Below, one piece after another: positions 1,668-57,216 of a stretch of 62,263 nt of DNA. This stretch comes from Planctomycetota bacterium (GTDB lineage: Bacteria > Planctomycetota > UBA11346): positions 1 to 62,263 of the forward strand of contig JANPLC010000142.1 of assembly GCA_031426335.1 (NCBI GenBank), in the 5' to 3' direction. The position numbers and the translations under genes are program-made. The notes beneath the pieces were generated by a model, which saw only the letters and a program-made list of their open reading frames with translations, searched no databases and was not told the DNA's origin. Each line of letters begins with the position of its first letter. The stretch's first letter is position 1.

Positions 1668-1778
1668 GGCGGCATGCTGCGAGGGCGCGCACATCAGCAA
1701 GAGCGGCCCGCCGGCAGCGACCTGCGGCTGTGCATCGGCGATGAGGAAACCGCAAGGATTCGATGAACCTACAACCGG

Positions 1779-1912
1779 CGATAGATCGAACACAGAGCAC
1801 CAGAGAACCAGAGACGAAGGGGAATTGCGACATCAGCACGCGTCACCAAGTGGGTGAGAGTCCTCTCGGTCACAAACCCTTGGCCCTTCCTCTGGTGCTC
1901 TGTGTTCTATCG
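1779..1912. repeat. Intergenic word-repeat hairpin element (CACAGAG/CCAGAG type)
   Basis: The left arm is gcgatagatcgaacacagagcaccagagaaccagagacgaagggg. The right arm cccttcctctggtgctctgtgttctatcgc is its reverse complement with two bulges. A central loop of about 60 nt separates them. It lies between the DUF2339 stop (1933) and the mtnA start (1667). Confidence 0.75.
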
Positions 1913-10158: not shown

Positions 10159-10309
10159 GGAGGGCTCCCAAGCACGGGGGTGGGTAAAAAAGCTCGGGGA
10201 CGCTACGAAGGCCCCCCAGGCAGACAAGCACAGCCCAGCCGGCCCCAGCACGCCGGCCGCAGCCCTGCGCTTCCCCCTCGGGCGGCAGCGGCCACCATTC
10301 CCGGCCTCC

Positions 10310-13300
10310 ATGCCTGCTCCCCGTCCGTGGTCGAATCGCTTGTTGCTGCTCGTCGCCCTGTTGCCGGCGCTGGTAGCCACTGTCTGGGCGTTCCTGATCC
10401 TAGGCCGAGAAGGCCGGCGTGAGCACGAGACGCGCTTCTCTGTACAAGCCGACGAAGTCAGTGCCGGCATCCATGAACGCTTGCAGAACTGCCTGGATGT
10501 GTTGTGGGGTGGTCGCGGTCTGTTTGTCGCGTCGGAAATGGTCACTCAAGACGAGTTCCGCAACTACATCGCCGCCCTGCACCTGGATGAGCGGCATCCC
10601 ACCATCCGCGGCGTCGCCTTCGTCCAGCACGTACCAGTTGGTGGCCTGGATGCGGTGTTGGCGACCATTCGCAGCGAGCTCCCCAGCGTCGCGCCGACCG
10701 CCCTGGCGGACGGCGGCGCGGCCCACGCAGTGGTACGGTTCATCGAACCGTTGGCAGCCAATCAGCAAGCGCTGGGACTCGACGTCTTCGCCGAGCCGCT
10801 GCGGCGGGCTGCCCTGCAGGCCGCGCGCGACAGTGGCGAGGCGCAACTGACGGCACCGCTGTCGCTGGCGCAGGATCCCGGCGGTGCGCTCGGCTTCCTC
10901 CTGATGGTGCCGGTCTATCAGTCCGGTCCGCCACCGACCACGGTGGACGATCGACGGGCCCGCCTACGTGGCTGGGTCGATGCTCCGTTCACCAGCGCCG
11001 ATATCCTGCGCAGTCTGCCGCTGAATGAACAAATCGGAGTGCAGATCCGCGATATTACTGATGCCCAGCAACCGCTGCTGGTCGGTGATTCCGGTAATCT
11101 GGTCGCCACCTCCAACGTCCTCACCGCCCTGCGCCGTTTCTCTTTCGCCGGTCGCACCTGGGAGATCACCTTGCGCGCCAGCCAACCAGCGCTGCGGCAA
11201 GGCGCCCGCTCATGGACCGCGATGGTGAGCGGCCTACTGCTCAGCGGTTTGTTGGCCGCCCTGTTGTTCGGGCTCCAGTCGCGCCGCGAACGCGCCGAGT
11301 CCGCCGTCGCCCGTCAAGCGGTGGCGCTGCACCACAGCGAGGACCGTTGGCGTACGGCGATCGAGACCATCAACGACGGCTTCTGGGAGATCGATCTGGC
11401 CGATGACCGGGTGTCGTGCTCACGCCGCTGGCTCGAACACCTGGGCTACCAACCAGGTGCGATCCCCACCACCCGGGCGGCGTGGCGCGAGCTGATGCAT
11501 CCCGACGACCAGGAACGGGCACAACAGGCCCTGGCCGACCACCTCGCCGGACGCACCCCACTGTTCCTGCTCGACACCCGCATGCGTCACCGCGATGGCT
11601 CCTACCGCTGGATCCATGTGCGTGGACGGGCGCTGCTGGACGCCCACGGCCTGCCAGTGCAGGTGCTGGGGTCGAATACCGATATCACCGAGCAGAAACG
11701 CATCGCCGAACAGCTCGCGGCGAGCGAGGCTGGCTATCGTGCGGTGGTCGACCACCTGTCACTAGTGGTGTTCCGCACGGATGACGAGGGCCGCATCACC
11801 TTTCTCAACCACGCCTGGCTCGACCTTACTGGCGTGACGAACGAAACCGCGCTCGGCCAGCCGCTGCACGCGTTCTTCCATCCCGACGACCGCACCACCG
11901 TCACCGGCATGTTCACCCAGGTGGAGGGCCAGCGCTCGGGACGGCGCGAAATGCGGGTGCTCAACCGCACGCGCACCTACCGCTGGGCCGAAGTCGAAGT
12001 GCGACGGCTGGCCGCTGGCGGAAGTGGCTTCACCGGCACGCTCACGGATGTCACCCGGCGCAAACTCGCCGACCTCTCGATCCGCTCATCGGAAGAGAAG
12101 TTGCGGGCATTGTTCGAACTGTCGCCACTCGGCATCGCGCTGTGCCGCCTCGATGGTTCGCTGCTGCAGGTCAACCAGGCCTACTGCGATATCGTCGGCT
12201 CCAGCGCCGAGGAATGCCTGCGCCTGAGCTTCTGGGGAAACACCTCCCGCGAGGACCACGAGCAGGACCAGGAGCAGTTGCGTCTGCTCGCGGAACTTGG
12301 GCGGTACGGGCCGTACCAGAAAAGCTACCTGCGCAAGGACGGCCGCCCGGTGCCGGTGCTGCTCAACGGCATCCTCATCCGCGATATCAACGGCACGCAG
12401 CTGATCTGGTCCTTCGTCGAAGACATCACGCCGCGCCAGGCCGCCGAAGACGCGCTCAGGCATTCGCGCGATGCGGCCGAAGACGCCAGCCGGGCAAAGA
12501 GCGAATTCCTCGCCACCATGAGCCACGAGATCCGCACGCCGATGAACGGCATCATCGGCATGTCGCGTTTGTTGCTCGGTTCGACGCTGACGGCCGAGCA
12601 ACGCGAATTCACCGAGATCGTGCGTTCGAGCGCCGACAATCTGCTCAGCCTGCTCAACGACATCCTCGACCTTTCGAAGATCGAAGCCGGTCGATTGGAG
12701 CTGGAGGCCATCCCCTTCGACCTGCGCACCGTCATCGACGACGTGGTCTCGCTGATGGCCGGGCGCATCGTCGAACGCCGCCTGGAATGTGTGGTCGACT
12801 GCGATCCGCAGGTGGATTCGCGGGTGGTCGGCGACCCGGTGCGTCTGCGTCAGGTGCTGCTCAACCTGGTGTCGAATGCGGTGAAATTCACCCGCGCTGG
12901 CGAGGTCCTAGTGCGCGTGCGCTGCCATGGCGACGGACGCCTGCGCTTCGATGTCTGCGATACCGGCATCGGCATCGCCCGTGAGGTCCGCCAAGGCCTG
13001 TTCACCGCTTTTTCGCAGGCCGACAGCACCACTACCCGGCAGTACGGCGGCACCGGACTCGGTTTGGCGATCTGCAAACACCTAGTCGATTTGATGAAAG
13101 GCGAGATCAGCCTGGAGAGCGCCCCAGGTATCGGCAGCACCTTCTCGGTCCTGCTGCCGCTCAAACGGGCTGACGACCTGGTGCCGATGGACCCACCGCT
13201 GAGTGGCGCCGTGGTGCTGCAACATGTGTCGCCCACCATCCGCGATGCGCTCTGCCATCTGCTGCAGCACCTGGGACTCACGCCCTACGCCGTCGCTGCA

Positions 13301-14389
13301 CTGGCCGACATCCCCGCCGCGCTGGCGGAACTGCATGCGCTGGTGCTGCTGGATGGCGACCAGGACGGCGCACGCGACCTGGTCGCGGCGTTGGCTGCGC
13401 GCCAGCCACCGGTGCGCGTGGTGGTGATGACCCGTACTCCGCCGGCGTGGGCGGACCGCGCGCTGGCAACACCAGTGGCAAAACCGCTACGCACGTCGCG
13501 TCTGGAGGATGCCATCGCTCAGGCCCTGGGGCGGCGCCGTCCGTCGCGCGCGCTGAACACGGTGCTCGGCGCGCCGCCAGTGCGGCGCGGCCAGACCGTG
13601 CTGGTGGTGGAGGACAATCCCACCAACGAACGGGTGGCGGTGGCGATGCTGCAACGCCTCGGCTTCGATACCGCCACTGCGGTCAACGGCGTCGAGGCGC
13701 TGCGCGCACTCGAGCAGGCCGCCAAGGCGAAGCCGTTCACCCTGGTGCTGATGGACTGTCAGATGCCGGTGATGGACGGCTTCACCGCCACCAATGAATG
13801 GCGCCAGCGTGAACGCCGCGGCGCCGTCGCCGGACACTTGGCGATCGTGGCGCTGACCGCCAACGCCTTCGACAGCGACCGGCAACGCTGCCTGGACGTC
13901 GGTATGGATGATTTTCTCGCCAAGCCGCTCCAAGTCGAGGAACTGCTGGCGATGCTCGCGCGCGTGTTGCCCAAGGGCTCGCCGCCCCTGCCGGATGGCA
14001 ATCCGGCGCTGAGCACCACGCCGCCGATGGGCTCGTCGGTGCTCTTCGATCCCTCGCCACTGCGCCGTCTGCGCTCCGCCACCGGCGAGAAGAACATCAT
14101 GAGCGAAGTCGCCGACCTCTTCCGCGTCGACGCCACCACCCAGCTCGCTGATGTGCGTCGGCTAGCCGACGCTGGCGACAGCGCACAATTGGCGCGCGCC
14201 GCGCACAAGTTCAAGGGCGCCTGCCTGACCGTTGGCCTCAACGCCTGCGCCAATCTGGCGGAGGCAATTGACCACCTGTCCGTGATCGGCGACCTGGGCG
14301 CGGCCCGTCAGGCGTTGGCGGAACTGGAAGAGCAATTCCCCTCGGCACTCGCGGCGTTGGCGCAGTCGCTCGATAAGACTACGGACTGA
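10310..14389 (+). CDS. Hybrid sensor histidine kinase: TM-CHASE-TM, multiple PAS/PAC, HisKA-HATPase, an atypical receiver, a receiver, and Hpt
   Basis: The periplasmic block between two TM helices has CHASE character (EFRNYIAALHLDERHPTIRGVAFVQHV ... IEPLAANQQALGLDVFAEPLRRAALQAARDSGEAQLTAP). H-box ATMSHEIRTPMNGIIG, G-boxes DTGIGI / GGTGLGLAI, REC VLVVEDNPTNE...LVLMDCQMPVMDG, and Hpt AAHKFKGACLTVG. I chose the ATG at 10310, which immediately precedes the first TM helix. Confidence 0.9.
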   Translation: MPAPRPWSNRLLLLVALLPALVATVWAFLILGREGRREHETRFSVQADEVSAGIHERLQNCLDVLWGGRGLFVASEMVTQDEFRNYIAALHLDERHPTIRGVAFVQHVPVGGLDAVLATIRSELPSVAPTALADGGAAHAVVRFIEPLAANQQALGLDVFAEPLRRAALQAARDSGEAQLTAPLSLAQDPGGALGFLLMVPVYQSGPPPTTVDDRRARLRGWVDAPFTSADILRSLPLNEQIGVQIRDITDAQQPLLVGDSGNLVATSNVLTALRRFSFAGRTWEITLRASQPALRQGARSWTAMVSGLLLSGLLAALLFGLQSRRERAESAVARQAVALHHSEDRWRTAIETINDGFWEIDLADDRVSCSRRWLEHLGYQPGAIPTTRAAWRELMHPDDQERAQQALADHLAGRTPLFLLDTRMRHRDGSYRWIHVRGRALLDAHGLPVQVLGSNTDITEQKRIAEQLAASEAGYRAVVDHLSLVVFRTDDEGRITFLNHAWLDLTGVTNETALGQPLHAFFHPDDRTTVTGMFTQVEGQRSGRREMRVLNRTRTYRWAEVEVRRLAAGGSGFTGTLTDVTRRKLADLSIRSSEEKLRALFELSPLGIALCRLDGSLLQVNQAYCDIVGSSAEECLRLSFWGNTSREDHEQDQEQLRLLAELGRYGPYQKSYLRKDGRPVPVLLNGILIRDINGTQLIWSFVEDITPRQAAEDALRHSRDAAEDASRAKSEFLATMSHEIRTPMNGIIGMSRLLLGSTLTAEQREFTEIVRSSADNLLSLLNDILDLSKIEAGRLELEAIPFDLRTVIDDVVSLMAGRIVERRLECVVDCDPQVDSRVVGDPVRLRQVLLNLVSNAVKFTRAGEVLVRVRCHGDGRLRFDVCDTGIGIAREVRQGLFTAFSQADSTTTRQYGGTGLGLAICKHLVDLMKGEISLESAPGIGSTFSVLLPLKRADDLVPMDPPLSGAVVLQHVSPTIRDALCHLLQHLGLTPYAVAALADIPAALAELHALVLLDGDQDGARDLVAALAARQPPVRVVVMTRTPPAWADRALATPVAKPLRTSRLEDAIAQALGRRRPSRALNTVLGAPPVRRGQTVLVVEDNPTNERVAVAMLQRLGFDTATAVNGVEALRALEQAAKAKPFTLVLMDCQMPVMDGFTATNEWRQRERRGAVAGHLAIVALTANAFDSDRQRCLDVGMDDFLAKPLQVEELLAMLARVLPKGSPPLPDGNPALSTTPPMGSSVLFDPSPLRRLRSATGEKNIMSEVADLFRVDATTQLADVRRLADAGDSAQLARAAHKFKGACLTVGLNACANLAEAIDHLSVIGDLGAARQALAELEEQFPSALAALAQSLDKTTD

Positions 14390-14409: not shown

Positions 14410-15774
14410 TCAGGCCAGCAGTTGCTTGACCACCTCGCCGTGCACATCGGTCAGACGGAAGTCGCGGCCGGCGTGGCGATAGGTCAGGCGTTCGTGGTCG
14501 AAACCGAGCAAGTGCAAGATCGTGGCGTGGAAGTCATGCACGTGGACTTTCTGGTCCGCGACGTTGATGCCGTGGTCGTCGGGGACACCGTAGGCGATGC
14601 CGCGTTTGGCGCCGCCGCCGCACATCCACGAGGAGAAACAATCCTTGTGGTGTTCGCGACCCTTGTGGTCCGCGGTGTCGACGTACGGCGTGCGGCCGAA
14701 TTCGGTGGTGCAGACCACCAGGGTGTCGTCGAGCATGCCGCGCTGTTTGAGGTCGGTGAGCAGCGCGGCGATCGGCTGATCGACGTTCTTCGCCAGCTTG
14801 GCGTGGTCCTGCATGTTGCCGTGCGAGTCCCAATTGTTGCTCGCGCCGGTGTCGATCAGTTCGATGAAACGCACGCCGCGTTCAGCGAGGCGACGCGCGA
14901 CCAGCGCCTGCCAGGCGAAGCCTTTTTTATCGCCACGTTTGAGGCCGTACAGTTCGTGCGTCGCATCGCTTTCACCCGACAGATCAAACGCCGCCGGGCC
15001 TTCTTGCTGCATGCCCGCCGCCGTTTCAAACGAGCGGATGCGCGCTGCCAGATTGCTGTCGTCGCTACGACCAGACAGATGGCGATCGTTGAAGGAACGG
15101 ATGAGTCCCAGTTCCAGATCCTGGAGGCCGGAGCTCGGCAGGATGCGGTTAAGATTCGCGATCGGTTCATCGCCAGGAATCAGCCGCGTGCCCTGATGGC
15201 AGGCCGGCAGAAAATCGTTCGCCCAAGTCTGGCCACCGGCGTAGGGCAGGTGTGGCGCAAGCACCATGAACGAGGGCAGATTTTTATTCTCGCTGCCGAG
15301 GCCGTAGCTGACCCACGAGCCAATGCTCGGGCGCGAGAACGTCACCGAGCCGGTGTGGATGCCGAGCGTGGCCTCAAAATGATTGCCATGATCGCCGACC
15401 AGCGAGTTGACGATGCACAGGTCGTCGGCGCGTTCGGCGATATGCGGGAACATCTCGCTGATCATCAGGCCACTCTGGCCACGCGGCTTGAACTCCCACT
15501 CCGGCTTTTTGAGAAAGCGTTTGTCGCCGATTTTCTTGCCTGCTTCCTCGATCAGTTTCGGCCGGTGGCAGAAGCTGTCGACGTGCGAAAAGCCGCCAGT
15601 GAGGAAGATGAAGATGACGCGTTTGGCCTTGCCGGGGAAATGCGCGGCCTTCGGCGCAAGCGGGTCGACCACCGCGGACTTGTCGGCGCCGATCAGGTCA
15701 GACAGCACCGCGGGCATCAGCAGCGAACCAGCCATCAACGACTGGAGCGCGGTACGACGAGTGATGGGAGTCAT
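14410..15774 (-). CDS. DUF1501 protein (Tat-exported, sulfatase-fold-like), partner of the upstream DUF1553 protein
   Basis: Twin-arginine leader MTPITRRTALQSL. Conserved DUF1501 blocks FGRTP, REHHKDCFSSWMCGGGAKRG and HDFHATILHLLGFDHERLTY. Confidence 0.9.
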   Translation of the reverse strand: MTPITRRTALQSLMAGSLLMPAVLSDLIGADKSAVVDPLAPKAAHFPGKAKRVIFIFLTGGFSHVDSFCHRPKLIEEAGKKIGDKRFLKKPEWEFKPRGQSGLMISEMFPHIAERADDLCIVNSLVGDHGNHFEATLGIHTGSVTFSRPSIGSWVSYGLGSENKNLPSFMVLAPHLPYAGGQTWANDFLPACHQGTRLIPGDEPIANLNRILPSSGLQDLELGLIRSFNDRHLSGRSDDSNLAARIRSFETAAGMQQEGPAAFDLSGESDATHELYGLKRGDKKGFAWQALVARRLAERGVRFIELIDTGASNNWDSHGNMQDHAKLAKNVDQPIAALLTDLKQRGMLDDTLVVCTTEFGRTPYVDTADHKGREHHKDCFSSWMCGGGAKRGIAYGVPDDHGINVADQKVHVHDFHATILHLLGFDHERLTYRHAGRDFRLTDVHGEVVKQLLA

Positions 15775-15815
15775 GGGTGGGATCCTTGAACGACGGACGG
15801 AAAGGCAAAAGAACT

Positions 15816-15921
15816 ATCAAACCGCAGAGACGCAGAGGTGAGAGGAGGGCCGCAGAGATGAAACTTCCAGGTCTGTCTGCTCTGCGGCCCTCTTCGTACC
15901 TCTGCGTCTCTGCGGTTTGAT
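15816..15921. repeat. Intergenic word-repeat hairpin element, CCGCAGAG type (copy 1 of 3)
   Basis: The 42-nt arms atcaaaccgcagagacgcagaggtgagaggagggccgcagag and ctctgcggccctcttcgtacctctgcgtctctgcggtttgat are reverse complements except for about 5 nt. The loop is 22 nt. The element sits between the DUF1553 stop and the DUF1501 start. Confidence 0.85.
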
Positions 15922-15939
15922 CGGCTGCCAGTTGGCAAT

Positions 15940-18390
15940 TCAATCGATGAACATGAACTCGTTGCTGGCGAACAGCGCGCGGACGAAACTGGTCAACGGC
16001 TTGGCGTTGGTCGCGTTCTCGGCCTTGGCCAAGTCTTCGAAGCGTTTGAGGTAGTCGACGCCGGCGCGGACCTCGTCCTCGCTCGCCGGACGCGCGAGCA
16101 CCATGACATAGGCCGCAGCGACGCGATTGAGCGGATCACCCGCCGTTTCCAGACGGCTGCTCAGCGCCTGCGCCTGATCTTGCATGAAGCGGCTGTTGAG
16201 CTGGAACAACGCCTGCAGCGGAGTGATGCTGGCGACGCGTTCACCGACCGCGCTGTTGGTGTCGGCGCCGTCGAAGATCTCGAAGAACGGATGTTTGCGG
16301 ATGCGCTGCTGCATGACGTAGACCGAGCGGTACGGGCTGTCGTAGACCGCCTGGAACGGCGCATGCTGGCTGTAATCTTTTTTGTTCAGCGAGGGGAATT
16401 CCTTGTGCGCTCCGGGCATGGCGCGGTCGAGGGTGCCGCTGACCACCAGCACGGCGTCGCGCACTTCCTCTGCCGACAAGCGCCGGCGGTTGAAGCGCCA
16501 ATGGCGGGTGTTGTCCGCATCCTTCACCAAGGCCTGCGGATCGTTGGTGGTTGCCAGACGGTAGGTGTGCGAGGTCATGATCTGACGGTGCATCTGTTTG
16601 AATGACCAACCGTTCTGCACCAGACGCAGCGCCAGCCAGTCGAGCAGTGCCTGGTTCGACGGCGTGCCGCCACGCAGACCGAAGTCATTGGTCGACGGCA
16701 CCAAACCACGGCCAAAATGCAGGTGCCAGAGGCGGTTCGCGGCGACGCGCGCCGTCAGCGGGTTTTTTGCGTCGGTCAGCCAACCGGCGAGGTCCAGGCG
16801 TCCGCTTCCCGCCGAGCCGTCCGGCAGTTTCTGTCCGCCAGCGATCTGCAGGAAGCCGCGGTGGACCTCGTCGCCGAGTTTCCAGCGTTCGCCGCGTTTC
16901 TGAATGCGTTCGTTGCGCGGGTCGCCCTCGGCCACGGCATAGGCGGTGGGGATTTCCTGCGGCAGTTCCTCGACCAGCGTGCGTCGTTCCTTCATCAGCT
17001 TGTTCATCGCATCGCGGATCTCGGTGTGGCCACGCGGCTCCTTCGGCGGCTCGCGGTTCTCCGCCTTGGCCTTCTTGATCTCCTCGCGGATCTTCCAGTC
17101 GTTCTCCTTTTCGTTACGCAGCACCGCATATTCCGCGTCGATCGCCAACACGCGGTCCTTTTTGTCACCGAGCAACTGGTCGCGTTCCTGGTCGCTGACC
17201 AGTTGCACGAAGCTGTGTTGGAAGCGGTATTCCTCCGACCCAGGGAACGGATACTTGGTCGACGCGAAGATGCCGTAGAGCGCATAGTAATCGCTGGTCG
17301 GGATGGGGTCGAACTTGTGGTCGTGGCAGCGCGCGCACGACAACGACAGTCCCATCATCACCCGCCCGGTGGTATCGATGGTGTCTTCGATGGTCAGGTG
17401 ATGATCGCTCTCCGGATTGACGCTGAAGCGCCGCGACAAGGCGATGAAGCCGGTGCCGATGGTCATCTCGCGGCGATGCGCGTCGTCGCGCGCGGGCAGC
17501 AAGTCGCCGGCGATCTGCTCACGCAGGAACTGGTCGTAGGGTTTGTCGGCATTGAACGAATCGATGACGTAGTTGCGGTAGCGAAAGGCCTGTGGCACCG
17601 GGTAGTCGGCGCTGTCGCCTTCGGTGTCGGCGTAGCGCGCCAGATCGAGCCAGTGCCGGCCCCAGCGTTCGCCGTAGCTCTTCGACGCCAGCAACCGGTC
17701 GATGACGGTGGCGAAGGCCTGCGGTGAATCGTCGGCGAGGAAGCGGTCGACCTCCTCCGCCGTCGGTGGCAGGCCGGTAAGATCGAACGTCGCGCGGCGG
17801 ATGAGCGTACGCTTGTCGGCATCACCGACCGGCTTGACGCCCGCCTCGGCGTGGCCGGCGGCGATGAAGCGGTCGATCTCGTTCTGGGCCCAACCGTCGC
17901 CAGCACTCGGCACGGCCGGCATGGTCAGCGGCTGGAACGACCAGTGCGATTTGGCGGCCAACAGTTCGGCCGCCGGATCACGGACCTTGGCGCCGGCGGC
18001 ATCCGGATGCGGGGCGCCCATGGCGACCCATTGCTCCAGCAGCTTTACTTTCTCTGGTGCCAGCCGCTCCTTCGGCGGCATGGCGGTGTCTTCGTCGAGC
18101 CAGCGCACCGCGTGGATGAGCGCGCTGGCGTCGAGTTTGCCTGGGACCAGCGAGGGCTTCTTGGAGGTGCCACCGGCGAGCATGCCGGCGTAGGTGTCGA
18201 CGCGCAGCGCACCCTTGAGCTTCTTCGCTTCGGCGCTGTGGCAGGAATAGCAGGCCTCGGCCAACAGCGGACGGATCTGGCGCTCGAAGAACTCGATGCC
18301 CGCGGGATCGCTGGCCGACGGCTCAGCGGCGGTCGCGCTTACCAGTGCAGCGAAAACGATGAGAACGCGGGTGGAGGGGCGGATACGCAT
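15940..18390 (-). CDS. PSCyt1 (cytochrome c) - DUF1549 - DUF1553 secreted protein
   Basis: Signal peptide, heme motif CYSCH in EACYSCHSAEAKKLKGALRVD, DUF1549 block NEIDRFIAAGH, and DUF1553 block CARCHDHKFDPI. Confidence 0.9.
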   Translation of the reverse strand: MRIRPSTRVLIVFAALVSATAAEPSASDPAGIEFFERQIRPLLAEACYSCHSAEAKKLKGALRVDTYAGMLAGGTSKKPSLVPGKLDASALIHAVRWLDEDTAMPPKERLAPEKVKLLEQWVAMGAPHPDAAGAKVRDPAAELLAAKSHWSFQPLTMPAVPSAGDGWAQNEIDRFIAAGHAEAGVKPVGDADKRTLIRRATFDLTGLPPTAEEVDRFLADDSPQAFATVIDRLLASKSYGERWGRHWLDLARYADTEGDSADYPVPQAFRYRNYVIDSFNADKPYDQFLREQIAGDLLPARDDAHRREMTIGTGFIALSRRFSVNPESDHHLTIEDTIDTTGRVMMGLSLSCARCHDHKFDPIPTSDYYALYGIFASTKYPFPGSEEYRFQHSFVQLVSDQERDQLLGDKKDRVLAIDAEYAVLRNEKENDWKIREEIKKAKAENREPPKEPRGHTEIRDAMNKLMKERRTLVEELPQEIPTAYAVAEGDPRNERIQKRGERWKLGDEVHRGFLQIAGGQKLPDGSAGSGRLDLAGWLTDAKNPLTARVAANRLWHLHFGRGLVPSTNDFGLRGGTPSNQALLDWLALRLVQNGWSFKQMHRQIMTSHTYRLATTNDPQALVKDADNTRHWRFNRRRLSAEEVRDAVLVVSGTLDRAMPGAHKEFPSLNKKDYSQHAPFQAVYDSPYRSVYVMQQRIRKHPFFEIFDGADTNSAVGERVASITPLQALFQLNSRFMQDQAQALSSRLETAGDPLNRVAAAYVMVLARPASEDEVRAGVDYLKRFEDLAKAENATNAKPLTSFVRALFASNEFMFID

Positions 18391-19169: not shown

Positions 19170-20222
19170 TTATTCCCGCAGCGACGTCCGCCGCCACAGT
19201 CGCGTCGCGGTGATCACCATGAACACCGGGAACTCTTTGGCCGCGCGGTCCTCGGCGCTGGAGCGGATGCCCTGCGTGCCGCGGCGGGTGCTGCACAGTT
19301 CCTCGCAGCCGACCACCGCCAGGCCTGCGGTGCCGAGTGCCGTTAGGATGTGGTGCAAGGGGCGGTGGAACGACGTCGTGCTGCTGGAGTCGTTGACTTG
19401 GCCTGGGTGAGTACGGATCGGCAGCGCCAGCGGTGACATGTACGCTTCTAAGCGGCGGTACTGCACGCCGAGCTCTTCATCGAAACCCCACGACGTGCGT
19501 TTCGGGATGCGGAAACACGGATGGGTCATCACGATCACCACTCGTCCGCCAGGTTTCACCAGCGCACGCACGCCGGCGAATACCGGTTCGATCGGATCGA
19601 GGTCCTGCACCGCCATCACCAATGCCGCGTGATCGAAACGCTTGCCCGGCAACACGGCTTCGAGCGTGCGCGCATCGCCCACTACGTAACGTTCACGATA
19701 ACCAGCGCGGCCAGTGGCCGCCGCAACGAGCGATGGACTGGCGTCGACGCCGACCACCTCCATGCCGCCTTCGGCAAGGAAGCGTCCGAGCACGCCCTGA
19801 CCGCAACAGACGTCGAGGATGCGTTGGCCCGGCCGCGCCTGCAGCTGCCGCGCTACCGCCGGCAACAGCAGTTGGCTGTGGAAATCATCGCCGCGTTCAC
19901 CGTGCAGCTGGTCGTACCAACCGGCCTGCGGTTCCCACGCGGTCTCGGCCGCGGGCAGCTGCGGCTGCTCGGGCGCAACTTCCTCAGGAGGGACATCGGT
20001 TCGATGGTCAGCGAACTCGGCATCCCGCTGAGAACGGCCTTCGCCACGATCCGCACGCGGGGCACGGGGCGGGCGGCGATCGCCACGATCGTCCCGCTGG
20101 GGACGTGGTGGACGGCCGTCTCCGCGATCACCCCGGGTCGGACGCGGCGGCATCGCCTGCTCCTCTGGAGTGCGACGGGGACGCGGTGCGTAGTTGCGCT
20201 TGGGGAACTTATCTGCGGGCAT
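19170..20222 (-). CDS. Class I SAM-dependent methyltransferase with an Arg/Pro/Asp-rich N-terminal low-complexity region
   Basis: Motif I ILDVCCGQGVLG, post-I VVGVDAS, PGGRVVIVMTHP. The first ~70 aa are PRPRRTPEE...RGDRGDGRPPRPQRDDRGDRRPPRAPRADRGEGR. Confidence 0.8.
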   Translation of the reverse strand: MPADKFPKRNYAPRPRRTPEEQAMPPRPTRGDRGDGRPPRPQRDDRGDRRPPRAPRADRGEGRSQRDAEFADHRTDVPPEEVAPEQPQLPAAETAWEPQAGWYDQLHGERGDDFHSQLLLPAVARQLQARPGQRILDVCCGQGVLGRFLAEGGMEVVGVDASPSLVAAATGRAGYRERYVVGDARTLEAVLPGKRFDHAALVMAVQDLDPIEPVFAGVRALVKPGGRVVIVMTHPCFRIPKRTSWGFDEELGVQYRRLEAYMSPLALPIRTHPGQVNDSSSTTSFHRPLHHILTALGTAGLAVVGCEELCSTRRGTQGIRSSAEDRAAKEFPVFMVITATRLWRRTSLRE

Positions 20223-20294: not shown

Positions 20295-22385
20295 TTAGGC
20301 GCCGTTGATGCGCTCGATGAGTTCACTCGGGCGGAACGGCTTCATGACGACACCGATGATGTCCACCCCGGGAGGCGCTGGATGAGGGAGGACCGGCGGT
20401 GCTCCGCTGATGACGAGGACACGCAGTGGAGACACCCGCTGGGCATCCCCCAGGTGCTGCAGCACCTCGCCACCGCCCATGCCAGGCATTTGCCAATCGA
20501 GCACCAGCAGATCGATCTCATCAAGCGGCTGTTCGGCGAGAAACCGCAATGGCTCAATGTACGTGCGTACCGGGAAACCAGCATCCGACAGGGTGTCGTG
20601 CAGCAGTTGGCTCAGATGAGTGTTGTCGTCGAGCACCACCACCCGCAGACGATCAGTTGGTCGTACCGCCATCGTTCCACTGGGAGTGCCAGTGACCGGA
20701 GTCGCCCCCAGCGGGGCCGTAACGGGCTCCTCACACAAGCGCAGCGTGATGCTGACGGTGGTACCCGCCCCAGGGCGACTGCTGACCACCAGGTCGCCAC
20801 CAGCGCGATCGACCAGCACCTGACAGACCGGCAGACCAAGTCCCGTGCCGCCCACCGACGGCGGAAACAGACCACTGCGATCGTGCGGTCCTTTGCGCGA
20901 GAAGAACGGCTGAAACAGCCGCGGCATGTCTTCGGCCTCAATGCCGACGCCGTTATCGCGTACGGTCAGCACCACTTGCTGAGCCCGGCGCTCGATACTC
21001 ACCGTCACTCGTGGATCGGTCGCACGATGGACGGCATGCAACGCATTCACCACCAAGTTGGACAACACTTGATGCAAGTCGTTGCTGTCGATGCGTACCG
21101 GGCAGGGTTGTTCACCGCTGACCAACTGCAAAGTCGCGCCGAAACGCCGAGCGCGCAGTTCCATCAACGCCAAGGTATCAGCTAGGTGCGGCCGCAGATC
21201 GATCACGGCGACTGCCCCTTCCGATGGACGGCCCAAGGTCAACAGCGATTCGCTGATGCGTCGGCTGCGTTCCACTACACCGAGGACGCGAGTGATCAGA
21301 TCACGTGCCGCAGGATCACTAGAGATATGACGGTGTAGCCGTTCGAGTCCGGCCAGCACCACCGCATTAAGATTGTTGTACTCATGCGCCACACCGGAAG
21401 CCATGCGCCCGATGGTCGCCAAACGTTCGCTGCGTAACAGATCCTGCTGGCTGCGTTCGAGTGCCTGCTTCGCCTGAGCTTGGGCGACAGCGAACCGCAG
21501 CGTGCGATCGAGCAGCGCCGGTTTCAGTTCCTCCTTGGTCAGGAAGTCAGCGACGCCGAGCGACAGGTAGGTTTCCGGCAATGCCGGATCAGCGGAACCG
21601 GTAACCACGACGACCGGAGGCCGTGCCACATCCGCAGGCAGCAGTCGCAGGACCTGGTCACCTACCATGCCCGCGAGGTGATGGTCGAGGATCCATACAT
21701 CATAGCGCCCATGCTGCAGCCGATCACCGAGGCCATCCACCGTCTGCAGCGCATCGACCACCCAACCACGCGGCGAACCACGTAGCAGCATGCGGATCTC
21801 AGCTACCAGATCCGGATCATCGTCCACGACCAGGACCCGCGATGCTGTGGCGTCACTGGCTATCGCACGCACTTCCTCACGTGGCGTCCGTTCCTCGCAT
21901 GGCGTCCGTTCCTCGCGTGGTGGCCGTTGCTCGCGTGGCACCTGCACATCGCGGAGTGACAGCGGCACGCGACCGAACTCCAACCAATGGGCGATCACCG
22001 CATTCATCACGCTGGTGGTTTCACCCAGGGACGATGGCTTGGTCAGGAAGGCGTTCGCGCCACTGGCATAGGCGCGGTCCACCTGCAGTTGATCAGAGGC
22101 GGTGGTGTAGATCACCACCGGCAGGAGTTCTCCGCGTGGACGCAAACGCAGGCGTTCGAGTACGGTGAATCCATCCATGGTCGGCATGTTGAGATCGAGC
22201 AGCACGACACAGCGTTCTGGCAGCGTCGCTTGATCGACGGCATCCAGCAACGCCAGGCCGCCATTCATATGAATGATGCGGATGTCGCGACCCATGCGCC
22301 GTGCGGCGGTGCGCAGCATCAGCACATCTTCTTCATCATCATCGACCATCACCACGGTGGTGTCGTAAAGTGTCTCAGGTGCCAT
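20295..22385 (-). CDS. Hybrid two-component protein: REC-REC-HisKA-HATPase-REC
   Basis: REC1 VVMVDDDEED...LLDLNMPTMDG, REC2 VLVVDDDPD...WILDHHLAG, H-box MASGVAHEYNNLNAV, G-box GTGLGLPV, and REC3 VVVLDDNTH...LVLDWQMPGMGG. Confidence 0.9.
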   Translation of the reverse strand: MAPETLYDTTVVMVDDDEEDVLMLRTAARRMGRDIRIIHMNGGLALLDAVDQATLPERCVVLLDLNMPTMDGFTVLERLRLRPRGELLPVVIYTTASDQLQVDRAYASGANAFLTKPSSLGETTSVMNAVIAHWLEFGRVPLSLRDVQVPREQRPPREERTPCEERTPREEVRAIASDATASRVLVVDDDPDLVAEIRMLLRGSPRGWVVDALQTVDGLGDRLQHGRYDVWILDHHLAGMVGDQVLRLLPADVARPPVVVVTGSADPALPETYLSLGVADFLTKEELKPALLDRTLRFAVAQAQAKQALERSQQDLLRSERLATIGRMASGVAHEYNNLNAVVLAGLERLHRHISSDPAARDLITRVLGVVERSRRISESLLTLGRPSEGAVAVIDLRPHLADTLALMELRARRFGATLQLVSGEQPCPVRIDSNDLHQVLSNLVVNALHAVHRATDPRVTVSIERRAQQVVLTVRDNGVGIEAEDMPRLFQPFFSRKGPHDRSGLFPPSVGGTGLGLPVCQVLVDRAGGDLVVSSRPGAGTTVSITLRLCEEPVTAPLGATPVTGTPSGTMAVRPTDRLRVVVLDDNTHLSQLLHDTLSDAGFPVRTYIEPLRFLAEQPLDEIDLLVLDWQMPGMGGGEVLQHLGDAQRVSPLRVLVISGAPPVLPHPAPPGVDIIGVVMKPFRPSELIERINGA
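21882..21935. repeat. 3 x 18-nt tandem repeat inside the REC1-REC2 linker
   Basis: tggcgtccgttcctcgca / tggcgtccgttcctcgcg / tggtggccgttgctcgcg, encoding REQRPP-REERTP-CEERTP on the minus strand. Confidence 0.8.
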
Positions 22386-23931
22386 GGGCTAATTCCTTTC
22401 GCAGTGGCAAGGTAACGGTGAATTCAGCGCCGCCGTCCTCACGACCGGTGGCAGCCAGGTGGCCCCCGTGGGCCTCAACGATACGACGACAGATGGCCAG
22501 ACCGATGCCGGTGCCTTCGCTGGTCACCTGCGGATGCAAGCGTACGAATGGCTCGAAGAGACGACCCGCCTGGTCCTGGGCGAAACCGCGCCCGTTGTCG
22601 TGTACGGTGATCCGCGCCTGACCGTTGCCGACCACCGCCGCGATGCGGATCTCCAGCGGCCGTTGCGGATGGCGATACCGCACGGCGTTGGCGATGAGGT
22701 TCTGGAACACCTGGACCAGGAGCTGGGAATCACCCGGCACCTCAGGCAGGGTACCGACCTCCAGCAGCGCGCCACATTCGCGCACACCAGCCTCGCAGTT
22801 TTCCAACGCCTCGCGTACGACTTCGCCAAGATTCACCGGTTTGACCGCGACCAGCGATTTTCCCGCACGGGCGAAGGCGAGCAGATCCTTGACCAAGCGC
22901 GACATGCGCTCGCTCGCGGAGCCCAAGCGGCGCAGGGCGTCTTCGCCGTCGTGGGTCAGACGACCGGAAGATTCCACCGCCACCACATCGGCAAAAAAGC
23001 GCATCTTGCGCAGCGGCTCCAGCAGATCGTGGGAAGCGATGTAGGCGAATTGCTCCAACTGCTGGTTGATGCGTTGCAGTTCCTGGCGCTGCTGCTCCTT
23101 GGCCAAGGCATCAAGTTTCTGCACGGTGATGTCCTGCACCGTTCCCCACAACCGGCGCAGGGTGCCATCAGCATGGCGCTCGGCATGCATGATACTGTGG
23201 TGCCAAGCGATGGTGCTGTCCGGCAGGCGCACCTCCAGATCACATTCGCTGCGCGCCGCCCCGCGTTCGATCACCGCCATCGACTCCTGCAAGGCGGCAG
23301 CTCCGGACGTGGTGTAGAGCGTCAGGTTCTCCTGGTAGTCCTTCGGTGGACCCTGTGCCGTATCACGCCGGAACATGCGATAGACCTCGTCGCTCCAGAA
23401 GATGCGTTGGCCCGCCGGATCGAACGACCAGTCACCGATGTGGGCCGCCTGCTGCGCCGCCAACAACCGCGATTCGCTGCGTTGCAGTTCGCCACTGCGG
23501 GCCAGCAACTCGTTCTGCGACGCCGTGCGTGCCGTGACCTCCGCCTGCAGGCGAAGGTTCATTGCCGCGATCCCAGGAATGGCCAAGGCCTTGGGCATGA
23601 TGTGGGCCGTGGCGATGACCGCCGCGATCGACACCAGGGCGGTGAACAATTTCACCACTCCCTGCACGGGATAGATCGGATACCAGAAAATGATCGCTTC
23701 GATCAGGTGGGTTGCACCACAGGCGAAGATGAAGGCGCAGAACAGCCAGAACACATAGGGGAATGGCACGTCGCGTTTGGCGCGCACGTACAGCGCAATG
23801 GTGATCGGGATGGCGGTGTAGGCGGTGAAGATCGCCAGATCGCTGAGGATGGTCATCCACCCCAGCAACGACGACCACTCGCCGCAATGCCAGCGCGGAG
23901 GAAATCCAGAAATGTCGAAGAAGCCGCCCAC
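22375..23931 (-). CDS. Sensor histidine kinase with an ETR1-type ethylene-binding transmembrane domain, then PAS, HisKA and HATPase
   Basis: The N-terminal three helices align with Arabidopsis ETR1: LSDLAIFTAYTAIP vs ISDFFIAIAYFSIP, FPYVFWLFCAFIFACGATHLI vs [23 protein letters not shown], and KLFTALVSIAAVIATAHIMP vs KVLTAVVSCATALMLVHIIP. H-box YIASHDLLEPLRKM, G-box GTGIGLAI. The gene overlaps the downstream hybrid kinase gene by 11 nt. Confidence 0.85.
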   Translation of the reverse strand: MGGFFDISGFPPRWHCGEWSSLLGWMTILSDLAIFTAYTAIPITIALYVRAKRDVPFPYVFWLFCAFIFACGATHLIEAIIFWYPIYPVQGVVKLFTALVSIAAVIATAHIMPKALAIPGIAAMNLRLQAEVTARTASQNELLARSGELQRSESRLLAAQQAAHIGDWSFDPAGQRIFWSDEVYRMFRRDTAQGPPKDYQENLTLYTTSGAAALQESMAVIERGAARSECDLEVRLPDSTIAWHHSIMHAERHADGTLRRLWGTVQDITVQKLDALAKEQQRQELQRINQQLEQFAYIASHDLLEPLRKMRFFADVVAVESSGRLTHDGEDALRRLGSASERMSRLVKDLLAFARAGKSLVAVKPVNLGEVVREALENCEAGVRECGALLEVGTLPEVPGDSQLLVQVFQNLIANAVRYRHPQRPLEIRIAAVVGNGQARITVHDNGRGFAQDQAGRLFEPFVRLHPQVTSEGTGIGLAICRRIVEAHGGHLAATGREDGGAEFTVTLPLRKELAHGT

Positions 23932-24072
23932 GGTACCTTCCCGACCCGCTCGTCGTCCGTGGACGCGGATGTCCGGAGATAATTACGGCAAGTTCATTCC
24001 TGATTCAACCTGCGGGCGACACGTTGTATGGGTTGAAATAATCCCATCGGTCATGCCCTTCCCCAGGCGACC

Positions 24073-26393: not shown

Positions 26394-27820
<1,427 letters not shown>

Positions 27821-27824
<4 letters not shown>

Positions 27825-30800
27825 TCCTTGCTGACAAATTCATCGGTGTTCATCACGGCGCGTGCCAACGCGGTCCACACCGCGCGTTCGGCGACGTCCC
27901 CCTCACCCGGCCCAGCCAACGGTGCCGGATCGAGTTCTTTGGCCGCATAACGTGCACGCTGTTTGTTCACGAAGGTGCTCAGGCGTTTGGCTTCTGCCTC
28001 ACCAGGAGCACGCACCAAGCAGCGCCGCACCAGCGCAGTGATGCGCGCGCTGTCGTCGCCGGGCATGCCAGCGATGTTCTTGCCGAGCGCCTGCGCACAT
28101 TCGAGCACCATGGTGTCGTTGAGCATCATCAGCGCCTGCAGCGGACTGTTACTGACCTCGCGCTGGGCAACGCAGGCTTCGCCGCTAGGCGCATCGAATG
28201 CCGCCGACATGGCGTACGGCGTGGTGCGTTTCATGAAGGTGTAAAGCCCGCGGCGGTAACGATCCTCGCCCGTGGGAACCTTCCAGTCGAAGCTGCCATA
28301 GGCGCCTTCGGTGGTTACGCTGGCCGGTTGCGGCGGGAACACGCTCGGGCCACCGATTTTGTGCGACAGCAGCCCAGACGCCGTCAGCAGGGAATCGCGG
28401 ATCACCTCGGCATCGACGCGAAAGCGCGGTCCACGAGCCAGCAAGATGTTCTGCGGATCCCGTTCACGAGCCGCATCGCTGACGCGCGACGACTGGCGAT
28501 ACGTCGCGCTGGTGACGAAGAGCTTGTGCAACTGTTTCTGCGACCAGCCGCGATTCATGAACTCGACCGCCAGCCAATCGAGCAATGCTGCATGGCTGGG
28601 CACATCGCCCTGGTAACCAAAGTCGTCGACACTCTTGACGATGCCGCGGCCGAAAAACGCCGCCCAGTGACGATTGACGGTCACCCGTGCAGTGAGCGGG
28701 TTATTGCGCGCCACCAGCCATTGAGCCAGACCGAGGCGGTTCTTCGGCGCACCTGCGGGAAAAGGATTGAGCGCGCTGAACACCGTCGGCTCAACGATCT
28801 CTGCCGGCTGAAGATATTCGCCGCGGTTGTAGCGATGCGTCGGCCGCGCGTGTTCGACCGCACGTTCGCTCATAACCAGCGTGGTCGGATACGAACGCAG
28901 CGAGTTGCGCTGACCATCGATCGGCTTGCGCGCATCGGCCAACTCCGGCGCGTTATCCAACCACGCTCGACGCAGCGTCGCCTGCTGGGTCGGCGTGCGT
29001 TTCGCGGCGGGCGTCAAGACGATGGCTTCGATCTCGGGCGGCAGAGCGGTGACGGCTTCGGGCGCTGAATCAGTGGTCACCGACCAACGGAAACGACCGA
29101 GGGCAGAGGCGTAGTAACGCTCAAACAACATCGCCAGCTGGATGCGTTCGCTTGGGCCGAGCGGGCGTTCCAGCACGAACATCGCACTGTGAGCCTTGCC
29201 GGGCTTGCCGTTGGTGCTCCAGCCGGTGTCGGTCTTGCCGTCGATCGCGCCGCCAGCGCCGTTGCGGCCTTCCTTGCCACCGGCGTAGCTGTGTTCGCCG
29301 CGGACGAACTTCAACGGCTGGCCTCCCACCGTGGCGGTCAGTTCGGTGAGCAAGAAATCACCGGCCTGTCCTTCGTAGTAAACCCGCCCTGGGCCACCGC
29401 TGGGCAGGCGTTCATCCGGCAGCGCTTCGAGCCGCAGCGCAGTGACGCCAGCGAAGTCGCCGGCAAGTTCGACATCGTAAACATCGCTCTTGGTGATGTC
29501 GCCACTCGACAGCACTGAGGCGTCGTCGAGCACGCTCAGGATCGGCACGGCCGACGACACCTTCGCCGGACGGATCACGCGCCAACGCACGGTCGACGCC
29601 GAGGTTTCTTGCTCCCAGCGGGCGAAGGCTTCGTCCGCCGCCCGTTGACGGGCTTCAACGGTGTTGCGCGTGGGATCGTCATGACCGAGCGAGAGACGTA
29701 CGCGGCGCAAGGTATGTTTGCTGCCGTACTGCTGAGCGATGGTGACTTCGACGCGCATGCCGCCGCTGTGTTTGACTGGTTTGTCGATCACGGCGGTGGC
29801 GGTATGTGTGGCCTTCATGTCGCTACCAGCCACGGCCCAACCGCTCTTGGGGTCGCCGTCGATGGCGCCCTTCACGTCGTAATCCTTTTGCGAGAAATCC
29901 GCGCTGATCGCTTTCAGCTTCACTGGCGACAACTCACCACCACGCGGACCAGCGCGCATGACCAAGTCCGTGACGACGAAGTTGCCGCTCTCCGCACGTC
30001 CGACGCGCTGATCGCCGTCGGGCAACGCTTCCAACCGCAACACCGAGAACTCGCTGGCGTCGGTATCCAGCGTGATGGTGACGGTATCGGTATCGGCACC
30101 GGCACCGGTCAACCGCCATGAGCCATCGCCCTGACGTTCCGCCTGTTCGCCACCGGCACTGACGAAAGTCGACGCTGAGATCGACGCCCACACGCGGGTG
30201 TCGAGCGGATACTTCGTCGGCAATTCATCAATCAGCTTGGCGACCTTAGCCTCGACCTCGGCCTGCTTCGCCGGGAAGTCCTCGGGTTTCAGCATCAACA
30301 CCGGTTCGTCGGCGTTGTTCATCAGCGCATAAATGCCGTAGTATTCGCTGTGCGGCAACGGGTCAAACTTGTGCGTATGGCACTGCGCACACAGCGTGGT
30401 CAGTCCCAGCCAGGTCTTGCCGGTGGTGGCGACGCGATCGTTGATCGCATGAAAGCGGAACTCCAGCGGATCGATGCCGCCTTCTTCGTTGATCATGGTG
30501 TTACGATGGAAACCAGTGGCGATGCGATCCTGCTGCGTCGCGTTCGGCAGCAGATCGCCGGCGATCTGTTTGATGGTGAAGTGGTCGAACGGCAGGTCGT
30601 CGTTGAGCGCGGTGATCACCCAGTCGCGCCACGGCCACATCGAGCGCGGGCGATCTTTTTCATACCCGTTGGTGTCGGCATAGCGCGCGAGGTCGAGCCA
30701 TTTGCGCGCCCAGCGTTCGCCGTAGTGCTTCGATGCCAGCAAACGATCGACCAGCTTGGCGTATGCCTCCGGCGATTGATCGGCGAGAAACGCATCGACC

Positions 30801-31423
30801 TCCTCCGGCGTCGGCGGCAGACCGATCAGATCAAGCGACACGCGGCGGATGAGCGTGGTGCGATCGACCTCGGGCGAGGGTACGAGTTTCTCCGCCTCCA
30901 ACTTGGCGAGCACGAAACGATCGATGGCGTTCGCCGACCACGCGGCGTTCTTTACCGCCGGCAACGGCGCCTGCACCGGCGGCTGGAAAGCCCAGTGCGG
31001 TTGGTAGTCGGCACCGGCAGCAATCCAGCGTTTGAGGATGTCCTTTTCGGCATCGGTCAGCGGCTTCTTCACTTCGGGTGGCGGCATCAGATCATCTACA
31101 TCGCTGGTGAAGATGCGCTTCACCACTTCGCTCGCCGCGGTTTTTCCAGGAACGATCGCGAGCTCACCCGACTTGCCCTTGCCGATCGCCGATTCGCGCT
31201 GATCAAGCCGCAGCTTGCCCTTGCGAGCCTTGTCGTCGGGCCCGTGGCACGCGAAGCAGTGCTTTGACAGGATCGGGCGGACCTGCGTGGCGAAGTCGGG
31301 CGCCTGGTCCGCGGCAGCAAGCATGGCCACGCCGACCAACAGGGCAGACACCACGGACGACAGACGGAATGCGATGGATGAGGGCATCGTGATGGTTCCC
31401 ATGACCCTGCGGGTCGACTTCAT
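27821..31423 (-). CDS. PSCyt1 - DUF1549 - two discoidin/F5-8-type-C-like modules - DUF1553 secreted protein
   Basis: CFACHGPDDKARKGKLRLD, NAIDRFVLAKL and CAQCHTHKFDPL. Two internal ~170 aa modules each carry LRLEALPD and AIDG(D/K)xxxGW motifs. Confidence 0.85.
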
Positions 31424-46513: not shown

Positions 46514-46586
46514 GAACAAGTGAAACGGAGGAACGGAGTGAAAGCAAAGGCTCCAAGCCGTTGTCCTCCGTTGCTCCTCGTGTTCA
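46514..46586. repeat. Short word-repeat hairpin (AACGGAG type)
   Basis: The words aaacggagg-aacggag are followed by a loop and then tcctccgtt, giving a 9-bp stem. The outer gaaca/tgttc pairing reaches the DUF1501 stop codon. Confidence 0.45.
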
Positions 46587-57003: not shown

Positions 57004-57180
57004 AGGTGGATGCCCTGCCGGGCAGGGTCATGTCGGCGAAAACCTCCGGACTGGACCGGTCGCAGGTCGCAGGCATGGCAGGCCCGCCTGCGAGGTCCAG
57101 CAGGACGCTGGTCCAAGGGCAGCACCCATTCACGCGCTGGTCCTGATCTATCGACCTAAGCAGTGATTTAACAATTAGAT

Positions 57181-57216
57181 AAAATTAAAGAACCGGAGTC
57201 CCTCCGGTGCTCCGGT
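57181..57216 (-). terminator. Rho-independent terminator downstream of the two-component operon
   Basis: The minus strand reads accggag-caccggaggga-ctccggt, followed by tctttaatttt. It starts about 27 nt after the kinase stop codon. This is the most AT-rich spot in the window. Confidence 0.5.

Follow-up and report, generated by a model that had tools for sequence, protein, structure and literature searches.

The EBD kinase gene and its N-terminal domain

We analyzed a 62,263-nucleotide (nt) stretch of DNA from a Planctomycetota bacterium (GenBank assembly GCA_031426335.1, contig JANPLC010000142.1, positions 1 to 62,263), the whole of which we call the window. On its reverse strand lies a gene for a sensor histidine kinase that carries an ethylene-binding-type domain (EBD) at its N terminus, followed by an overlapping gene for a hybrid histidine kinase (Table 1). 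The preliminary description of this DNA had placed the open reading frame of the first kinase at positions 22375 to 23931, and we found exactly these coordinates, with a GTG start and a product of 518 amino acids. The frame is intact, and its base composition at third and second codon positions (GC3, 0.78; GC2, 0.45) is typical for coding sequence of this genome. We found no second EBD gene in the window.

Table 1. Positions in the window of the EBD kinase gene, its parts, and the overlapping hybrid kinase gene
Feature	Residues	Positions	Strand	Basis or detail
EBD-PAS-HisKA-HATPase sensor histidine kinase, whole gene	518 amino acids	22375-23931	(-)	GTG start
N-terminal segment, predicted periplasmic, with R13-W14-x-C16-G17-x-W19	1-20	23872-23931	(-)	C16 codon 23884-23886
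Ethylene-binding-type domain, Pfam ETR1_N	23-118	23578-23865	(-)	Pfam, MAFFT, hhalign, EBD-only model
Transmembrane (TM) helix 1	21-51	23779-23871	(-)	
TM helix 2	58-81	23689-23760	(-)	
TM helix 3	87-117	23581-23673	(-)	
Codons in TM helix 1	D31; Y38; I41; P42	23839-23841; 23818-23820; 23809-23811; 23806-23808	(-)	
Codons in TM helices 2 and 3	I68; C71; H75; K94; S101	23728-23730; 23719-23721; 23707-23709; 23650-23652; 23629-23631	(-)	
Long cytoplasmic linker helix, TM helix 3 running on into PAS	118-162	23446-23580	(-)	AlphaFold model helix 119-162
Divergent PAS domain (PAS_3-like)	about 163-268	23128-23445	(-)	phmmer, orthologue profile, AlphaFold, Foldseek
DHp/HisKA dimerization and phospho-acceptor helices	269-355	22867-23127	(-)	Pfam HisKA 292-357
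Phospho-acceptor histidine, H-box IASHDLLEPLR	His301	23029-23031	(-)	
Catalytic ATP-binding domain, N/G1/F/G2 boxes intact	364-511	22399-22842	(-)	Pfam HATPase_c 400-511
Intergenic region (141 nt) 5′ of the kinase gene, presumed promoter of a two-gene operon		23932-24072	(-)	Inference
Partner hybrid kinase REC1-REC2-DHp/CA-REC3, whole gene	696 amino acids	20295-22385	(-)	Pfam
Partner REC1	D64	21996-22364	(-)	
Partner REC2	D234	21507-21836	(-)	
Partner DHp/CA	H334 (H-box His)	20730-21473	(-)	
Partner REC3	D630	20304-20648	(-)	

The database gene call for the kinase (P0230; 493 amino acids) starts at Met26 and thereby loses 25 codons (23857 to 23931; residues 1 to 25), which encode an RWxCGxW...GW motif. 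Because a start at Met26 removes this subfamily-invariant motif and because a Shine-Dalgarno-like GGAAGG lies 5 nt 5′ of the GTG at 23931, the GTG is the better start. No sigma-70 consensus was found in the intergenic region 5′ of the kinase gene, and a weak terminator-like hairpin (24112 to 24096) lies 3′ of the upstream EamA gene.

The N-terminal domain places the protein in the ethylene-receptor family. Residues 23 to 118 match the Pfam family ETR1_N (PF25487, “Ethylene receptor 1-like, N-terminal domain”) over profile positions 2 to 97 of 97, with a score of 108.8 bits (E value, 1.7e-31) relative to a family cut-off of 27 bits, and a profile match of this strength is far above chance level. 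Seven residues of Arabidopsis ETR1 (D25, Y32, I35, P36, I62, C65, and H69) are needed for ethylene binding (Wang et al. 2006, as cited in PMC11819568, PMC6682694, and PMC6586836). A profile-profile alignment (hhalign) of the bacterial subfamily with plant receptors set window residues 23 to 123 on plant residues 17 to 120 (probability, 99.4%; E value, 1.4e-21) and paired D31, Y38, I41, P42, I68, C71, and H75 with these seven residues in the order given. A MAFFT alignment of the window N terminus with AzoEtr1 of Azospirillum, a gammaproteobacterial EBD (P0227), four plant proteins, and ETR1 gave the same pairs, and both methods set K94 on ETR1 K91. Among the database entries listed, none was 100% identical to the ETR1 sequence in this set, apparently because the listing contained only short entries. 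The plant references are database proteins named “ethylene receptor” by their sources and 85 to 91% identical to this ETR1 sequence; they serve as independent references, and the conclusions hold without the ETR1 sequence. Columns invariant across the MAFFT set were D31, Y38, I41, P42, F64, F67, I68, C71, G72, H75, K94, V100, S101, and P113.

Conservation of all seven ethylene- and Cu(I)-binding residues had been proposed in the preliminary description, which named a profile alignment as the test that could overturn the proposal; C71, H75, D31, and Y38 do land on the ETR1 binding residues. Direct reading also agreed with the codons given there, tgt at 23719 to 23721 for C71 and cac at 23707 to 23709 for H75. 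The further statement that the domain aligns to ETR1 without gaps holds within each helix but not across the loop between TM helices 2 and 3, which is 3 residues shorter than the plant loop. This short loop, with a WYP.Y motif, is common to AzoEtr1 and other bacterial EBDs.

The binding-site residues are 98 to 100% conserved in 164 relatives despite being polar and intramembrane. There are about 35 full-length orthologues of the same architecture (53 to 88% identity), in which all binding and catalytic residues are conserved; their sources name them “signal transduction histidine kinase” or not at all. That the gene is a decaying, nonfunctional copy, or that its hydrophobic helices resemble an EBD by chance, is a reading to which we give almost no weight. 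Beyond the database gene call that is 25 codons shorter, nothing speaks for it, and the Pfam match, the intact frame, the conserved orthologues, and the profile-profile alignment effectively refute it.

K91 of ETR1 has been described as the coevolving polar partner of D25 that passes the signal to helix 3, and the D25-K91 pair has been tied to both ethylene affinity and signal transmission (PMC10266040). The equivalent D31-K94 pair is complete in the window protein. Two homologues from uncultured Roseobacteraceae (L005 and L006; EBD at about 6001 to 6426) carry N31 together with L94, a co-occurrence that fits the D25-K91 coupling described in PMC10266040.

An AlphaFold2 model of the full-length protein, built with 57 homologues, had a mean predicted local distance difference test (pLDDT) score of 88.3 and contained helices at residues 21 to 51, 58 to 80, and 87 to 115, a linker helix (119 to 162), an alpha/beta PAS domain (165 to 267), DHp helices (269 to 320 and 327 to 355), and a catalytic domain. 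A model of the EBD only (residues 1 to 125) reached a pLDDT of 91.8, with helices at 21 to 51, 58 to 81, and 87 to 117. The mean hydropathy of the three TM helices is 1.3 to 1.7. C71 and H75 are spaced i, i+4 on a confidently modeled helix and thus lie on the same helix face. Arginine and lysine residues are concentrated only in the loop between TM helices 1 and 2 (R50, K52, and R53), and neither the N-terminal segment nor the loop between TM helices 2 and 3 has a net positive charge. By the positive-inside rule, this distribution indicates an orientation like that of ETR1, with the N terminus predicted to be outside and the C terminus cytoplasmic.

Foldseek comparison of the EBD-only model with the Protein Data Bank (PDB; to April 2026) gave no meaningful match (best E value, 2.1), and a phmmer search of the PDB sequences likewise yielded no EBD. 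Because no PDB chain resembles the model, we conclude that the EBD fold was without an experimental structure in the PDB as of April 2026, and compact bacterial EBD kinases such as the window protein are reasonable structural targets.

PAS domain, kinase core, and the overlapping hybrid kinase

Between the linker helix and the kinase core, the evidence from sequence profiles and structure prediction points to a divergent PAS domain. Searched alone against Pfam, the window protein passed no PAS model at an E value of <0.1. With phmmer, it matched the PAS domain of PDB entry 3nja at 1.9e-4, and a profile of 16 orthologues matched 3nja at 1.4e-11 and also 3mr0 and the PAS domains of FixL and LOV-HK; 7 of the 16 orthologues matched PAS_3. 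The best Foldseek matches of the full model were the LOV/PAS-histidine kinases 8a7h and 4gcz, aligned over about 373 columns. The PAS domain that the preliminary description placed behind the EBD is thus borne out by phmmer, the orthologue profile, and the predicted structure, but not by any Pfam PAS model applied to the window sequence. Neither a GAF domain (PF01590) nor a phytochrome domain was matched by Pfam in the window protein.

The kinase core is of the phytochrome/Cph1 type, with a bacteriophytochrome histidine kinase (8f71) as its best PDB match. Both HisKA and HATPase_c are present with all catalytic motifs, in agreement with the complete core described at the outset, and H301, N415, D445, G447, G449, F459, F462, G473, and G475 are invariant across 57 homologues. 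As judged from these residues, the kinase is catalytically competent.

The position of the PAS domain between membrane and kinase raises the alternative that the three helices are only an anchor and dimerization module kept from an ethylene-receptor ancestor and that the cytoplasmic PAS domain is the true sensor. PAS domains often serve to sense ligands or redox state. A second sensory input is also known in EBD kinases, as in SynEtr1 of Synechocystis (PMC11819568). A mere anchor would not be expected to keep buried aspartate, cysteine, histidine, and lysine residues invariant across phyla. The PAS domain is far less conserved than the EBD, its sequence in the window fails every Pfam PAS model, and we identified no motif for cofactor binding there. 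We therefore regard sensing by the PAS domain instead of the EBD as improbable.

The gene for the hybrid kinase begins with an ATG that falls within the final codons of the EBD kinase gene, giving an 11-nt overlap (ATGGCACCTGA). Its product contains two N-terminal receiver (REC) domains, a DHp and catalytic ATP-binding (CA) core, and a C-terminal REC domain. Equivalents of CheY D12, D13, D57, T87, and K109 are kept in all three REC domains. The pairing of an EBD kinase with a hybrid kinase, including the identical 11-nt overlap, recurs at three orthologous loci (L001, L037/L038, and L039/L040) and is conserved down to 57% identity. The conserved overlapping REC-REC-HK-REC partner is a new detail of this work. 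At one of these loci (L039/L040; L039 at 9553 to 11528), the partner is split into a stand-alone 148-residue REC protein and a REC-HK-REC gene, whereas it is a single gene in the window and at the L001 and L037 loci. Because REC1 is thus separated or fused as a unit, it is the likely phospho-acceptor.

The hybrid kinase gene is followed, after a gap of 72 nt, by a gene for a class I S-adenosylmethionine (SAM) methyltransferase (19170 to 20222, reverse strand). Its product has an N-terminal extension of about 110 residues that is rich in arginine, proline, aspartate, and glutamate and of low complexity. We considered and rejected this protein as a member of the system: it lacks a CheR-type domain and shows only loose synteny at the L001 locus, where its homologue lies about 3 kb further off, which makes a functional connection with the kinases doubtful.

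The RWxCGxW motif, known receptors, and the proposed signaling route

The 20 residues that precede TM helix 1 are more than a dispensable leader. R13, W14, C16, G17, and W19 are identical in all 164 of the closest relatives, G24 and W25 hardly vary in the same set, and C16 and W19 remain invariant in wider alignments. As read from these alignments, the RWxCGxW motif defines a subfamily that spans several phyla, and this subfamily is new here. The plant receptors lack the motif. For AzoEtr1, we took the sequence from Azospirillum genomes by means of the primer that PMC11819568 gives for its cloning; a Cys-x-x-Trp stands there at the equivalent, ungapped position within a PHGxCxxW motif. The single N-terminal cysteine of cyanobacterial EBDs has been proposed to replace the C4/C6 dimer disulfide of plant receptors (PMC6682694), and the simplest reading of C16, by analogy, is that it may be a stand-in for this disulfide.

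Among the closest known receptors is AzoEtr1 (Azospirillum brasilense ethylene response 1), whose first 130 residues were shown in 2025 to bind 14C-ethylene saturably (PLoS Genet 2025, PMC11819568). The two proteins share the EBD-PAS-HK domain order (525 residues in AzoEtr1 and 518 here) and are colinear over residues 4 to 510, with 29% identity overall (E value, 2e-46) and 40% identity between the EBDs. Both have the seven binding residues, the K91 equivalent, the short loop between TM helices 2 and 3 with WYP.Y, and an FFD(T/I)S...C-x-x-W segment before the first helix that aligns without gaps. They differ in the N-terminal motif (PHGxCxxW compared with RWxCGxW here) and in the H-box, which is AHEMSQPLN (FixL/NtrB-like) in AzoEtr1 and SHDLLEPLR (phytochrome/Cph1-like) in the window protein. 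They also differ in host and in evidence, AzoEtr1 being an alphaproteobacterial protein with experimentally shown binding and the window protein a planctomycete protein with predicted binding. A gene with a receiver domain lies directly downstream in both, but it encodes a stand-alone response regulator in Azospirillum and the REC-REC-HK-REC hybrid kinase here. An adjacent stand-alone response regulator gene of the AzoEtr1 type is absent from the window, and a stand-alone REC protein occurs only at the orthologous L039 locus. The hybrid kinase neighbor is a variant output and does not exclude the window protein from the EBD family.

Relative to Arabidopsis ETR1 and ERS1, the window protein matches D25, Y32, I35, P36, I62, C65, H69, K91, and S98 and likewise continues into a histidine kinase core. 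The EBDs are about 30% identical, and the shorter loop between TM helices 2 and 3 sets the window protein apart from the plant receptors. Plant receptors have a GAF domain where the window protein has a PAS domain and a C4/C6 pair where it has a single C16 in a different motif; the window protein also has no fused receiver. Signaling proceeds through CTR1 and EIN2 in plants, whereas a bacterial phosphorelay would be expected here. SynEtr1 (Synechocystis slr1212, UirS), which we compared by its published description, is likewise a bacterial EBD kinase, and a lone cysteine at the N terminus is found in cyanobacterial EBDs too (PMC6682694). SynEtr1 differs in its bilin-binding (cyanobacteriochrome GAF) module between EBD and kinase, which makes it a dual receptor for light and ethylene, whereas the window protein has no GAF domain and a PAS_3-like middle domain. 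SynEtr1 signaling requires histidine kinase activity and phosphotransfer to a neighboring receiver protein (PMC11819568).

The N-terminal motif is central to a second alternative, in which Cu(I) would be bound as in ETR1 but the signal would not be ethylene. The signal could be another pi-ligand, such as a larger alkene, CO, or an isonitrile, or it could be the envelope's copper or redox status, with Cys16 as an extra ligand or redox switch. The invariant R13, W14, C16, G17, W19, G24, and W25 are absent from the plant receptors and were left unaligned to them by hhalign, the N-terminal segment was modeled in the EBD-only model at a pLDDT of 82 to 88, suggesting that it may pack on the helix bundle, and ethylene binding in the RWxCGxW subfamily is a prediction. 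Set against this, all seven ETR1 ethylene-binding residues and the K91 equivalent are retained, AzoEtr1 binds ethylene yet also has a Cys-x-x-Trp before its first helix, and a lone N-terminal cysteine has already been proposed as a substitute for the C4/C6 disulfide (PMC6682694). We consider a signal other than ethylene unlikely, though less so than sensing by the PAS domain.

Taken together, the EBD, the kinase core, and the conserved gene pair lead us to favor an ethylene sensor that depends on Cu(I) and passes its signal into a phosphorelay of two kinases, which we regard as the probable function of this locus. The window protein would be a homodimeric inner-membrane sensor kinase of the bacterial ethylene-receptor family, with one Cu(I) per monomer held in the three-helix bundle by C71 and H75, which lie one turn apart on helix 2, with help from D31 of helix 1. 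The ligand, ethylene or a small olefin much like it, would dissolve in the membrane and bind the copper, and the D31-K94 polar bridge would relay the resulting change to helix 3. From there, the change would pass through the long linker helix and the PAS domain to the DHp helices and would alter autophosphorylation at His301, either upward or downward. The phosphoryl group would most likely move from His301 to Asp64 of REC1 in the translationally coupled hybrid kinase. The output would therefore be the second kinase and a further phosphorelay in place of a DNA-binding regulator from the same locus.

Several points weigh against this ethylene sensor and phosphorelay. Copper and ethylene binding by the window protein and by the RWxCGxW subfamily is predicted from sequence, an ethylene source for the uncultured host is assumed, and we infer the phosphotransfer partner from gene order alone. 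We found no genes for copper handling or copper trafficking and none for ethylene metabolism in the window. In addition, two positions of the EBD depart from its relatives. Position 27, one helical turn before D31, is threonine in the clade of window orthologues (codon 23851 to 23853) and histidine in 156 of 165 related bacterial EBDs, with histidine in AzoEtr1 and glutamine in plants. Position 88 is proline in the same clade (codon 23668 to 23670) and arginine in 157 of the 165 related EBDs.

Distribution, host lineage, and genomic surroundings

An exhaustive HMMER search with residues 1 to 130 against 1.84 billion cluster representatives returned 7,558 matches at an E value of ≤1e-3, each standing for a cluster at 50% protein identity, of which 5,195 were at ≤1e-10 and 479 at ≤1e-30. 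The phyla in which EBDs occur include Planctomycetota, Bacteroidota, Pseudomonadota, Myxococcota, and Acidobacteriota, among others. The subfamily of the window protein was seen in Planctomycetota metagenome-assembled genomes (MAGs), Gemmataceae, Cytophagales, Chitinophagales, Hymenobacteraceae, Roseobacteraceae, a MAG labeled Akkermansia, and the cultured Huijunlia imazamoxiresistens (Bacteroidota; Chitinophagaceae), whose strain H34 has a kinase with the EBD-PAS-HK layout at 34% identity (L002). EBD kinases of more distant relationship are found in Rhodopirellula (P0271 in one strain), Polyangiaceae, Bdellovibrionales, and Acanthopleuribacter. The window protein, as placed by its profile matches, belongs to a family that is already known and profiled and has very many members.

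This distribution agrees with published work, according to which many bacteria carry EBDs that have all seven residues and ethylene binding has been demonstrated in plants, Synechocystis, a mycorrhizal fungus, and Azospirillum (PMC11819568, PMC10266040, and PMC7700396). The preliminary description had limited demonstrated binding to plants, Synechocystis, and very few other bacteria, and on this it agrees with PMC11819568. The significance that it attached to the find was overstated, given a domain with its own Pfam family, 7,558 clusters, and the already validated AzoEtr1 of the same architecture. The general picture is unchanged, as seven-residue bacterial EBDs were known to be widespread and two of them have been validated. 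The planctomycete lineage and the hybrid kinase output are new details that would not surprise a specialist. Our search for ethylene receptors in Planctomycetes, in part loosely worded, found no relevant link in the searchable literature.

A bolder interpretation is that the RWxCGxW kinases form a distinct branch of ethylene receptors spread over several phyla (Planctomycetota, Bacteroidota, Roseobacteraceae, and the Akkermansia-labeled MAG), in which the Cys/Trp motif alters copper coordination or ligand selectivity and the planctomycete output is a REC-REC-HK-REC kinase cascade. We put this forward tentatively, as possible but unlikely. If true, it would describe an ethylene- or olefin-gated kinase cascade of a kind not described for any ethylene receptor, with no transcription factor as its target.

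The host lineage is supported by several lines of evidence and agrees with the assignment to the Planctomycetes-Verrucomicrobia-Chlamydiae (PVC) lineage in the preliminary description. The closest kinase locus is in a Planctomycetota MAG (68% identity), where synteny extends to the upstream EamA gene (84%), and an MtnA-like housekeeping gene of the window matched only unclassified Planctomycetota MAGs, at 70 to 85% identity. The window also contains planctomycete-typical genes, namely three pairs encoding DUF1501 and PSCyt1-PSCyt2-PSD1 proteins, Ser/Thr kinases, a sigma-54 activator pair, and a pair of an extracytoplasmic function (ECF) sigma factor and FecR. The tandem DUF1501 and PSCyt1-PSCyt2-PSD1 (“Planctomycete cytochrome C”) pairs, at 14410 to 18390, 26394 to 31423, and 46584 to 51379, are all on the reverse strand and are a strong lineage marker. 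One PSCyt1-PSCyt2-PSD1 protein (48083 to 51379) has an inserted Laminin_G_3 domain.

The MtnA-like protein (471 to 1793, reverse strand; 440 residues) belongs to the IF-2B/MtnA family of methylthioribose-1-phosphate isomerase-like proteins and has an N-terminal extension of about 90 to 125 residues. This extension is found only in the closest Planctomycetota MAGs, in which matches begin at residues 27 to 42, compared with about residue 86 elsewhere. Two eukaryotic-type Ser/Thr protein kinases are encoded at 34113 to 36185 and 59922 to 62114, both on the reverse strand, and the first of them has a weakly dCache_1-like extracytoplasmic region (27.9 bits relative to a Pfam cut-off of 45). A cluster of regulators on the reverse strand (55004 to 59407) comprises a FecR-PA14 anti-sigma-like protein (55004 to 56320), an ECF-type sigma factor (56317 to 57003), and a short soluble HisKA-HATPase kinase (57243 to 57953) that adjoins a REC-sigma54-activator-HTH_8 regulator (57953 to 59407). 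A gene on the forward strand (10043 to 14389), some 8 kb away from that of the EBD kinase, encodes a 1,448-residue hybrid kinase with the domain order CHASE-PAS-PAS-HisKA-HATPase-REC-Hpt. CHASE is the sensor domain type of plant cytokinin receptors and is common in bacteria. The window thus contains two sensor domains of plant hormone receptor type, which may mean nothing.

If the window protein does sense ethylene, ethylene perception would extend to Planctomycetota. Soils, peat, and algal and aquatic biofilms are sites of ethylene production in which these bacteria abound, and to our knowledge, hormone or gas sensing has never been studied in them. The locus gives such a receptor a defined and testable output in the overlapping REC-REC-HK-REC kinase, which is conserved alongside it.

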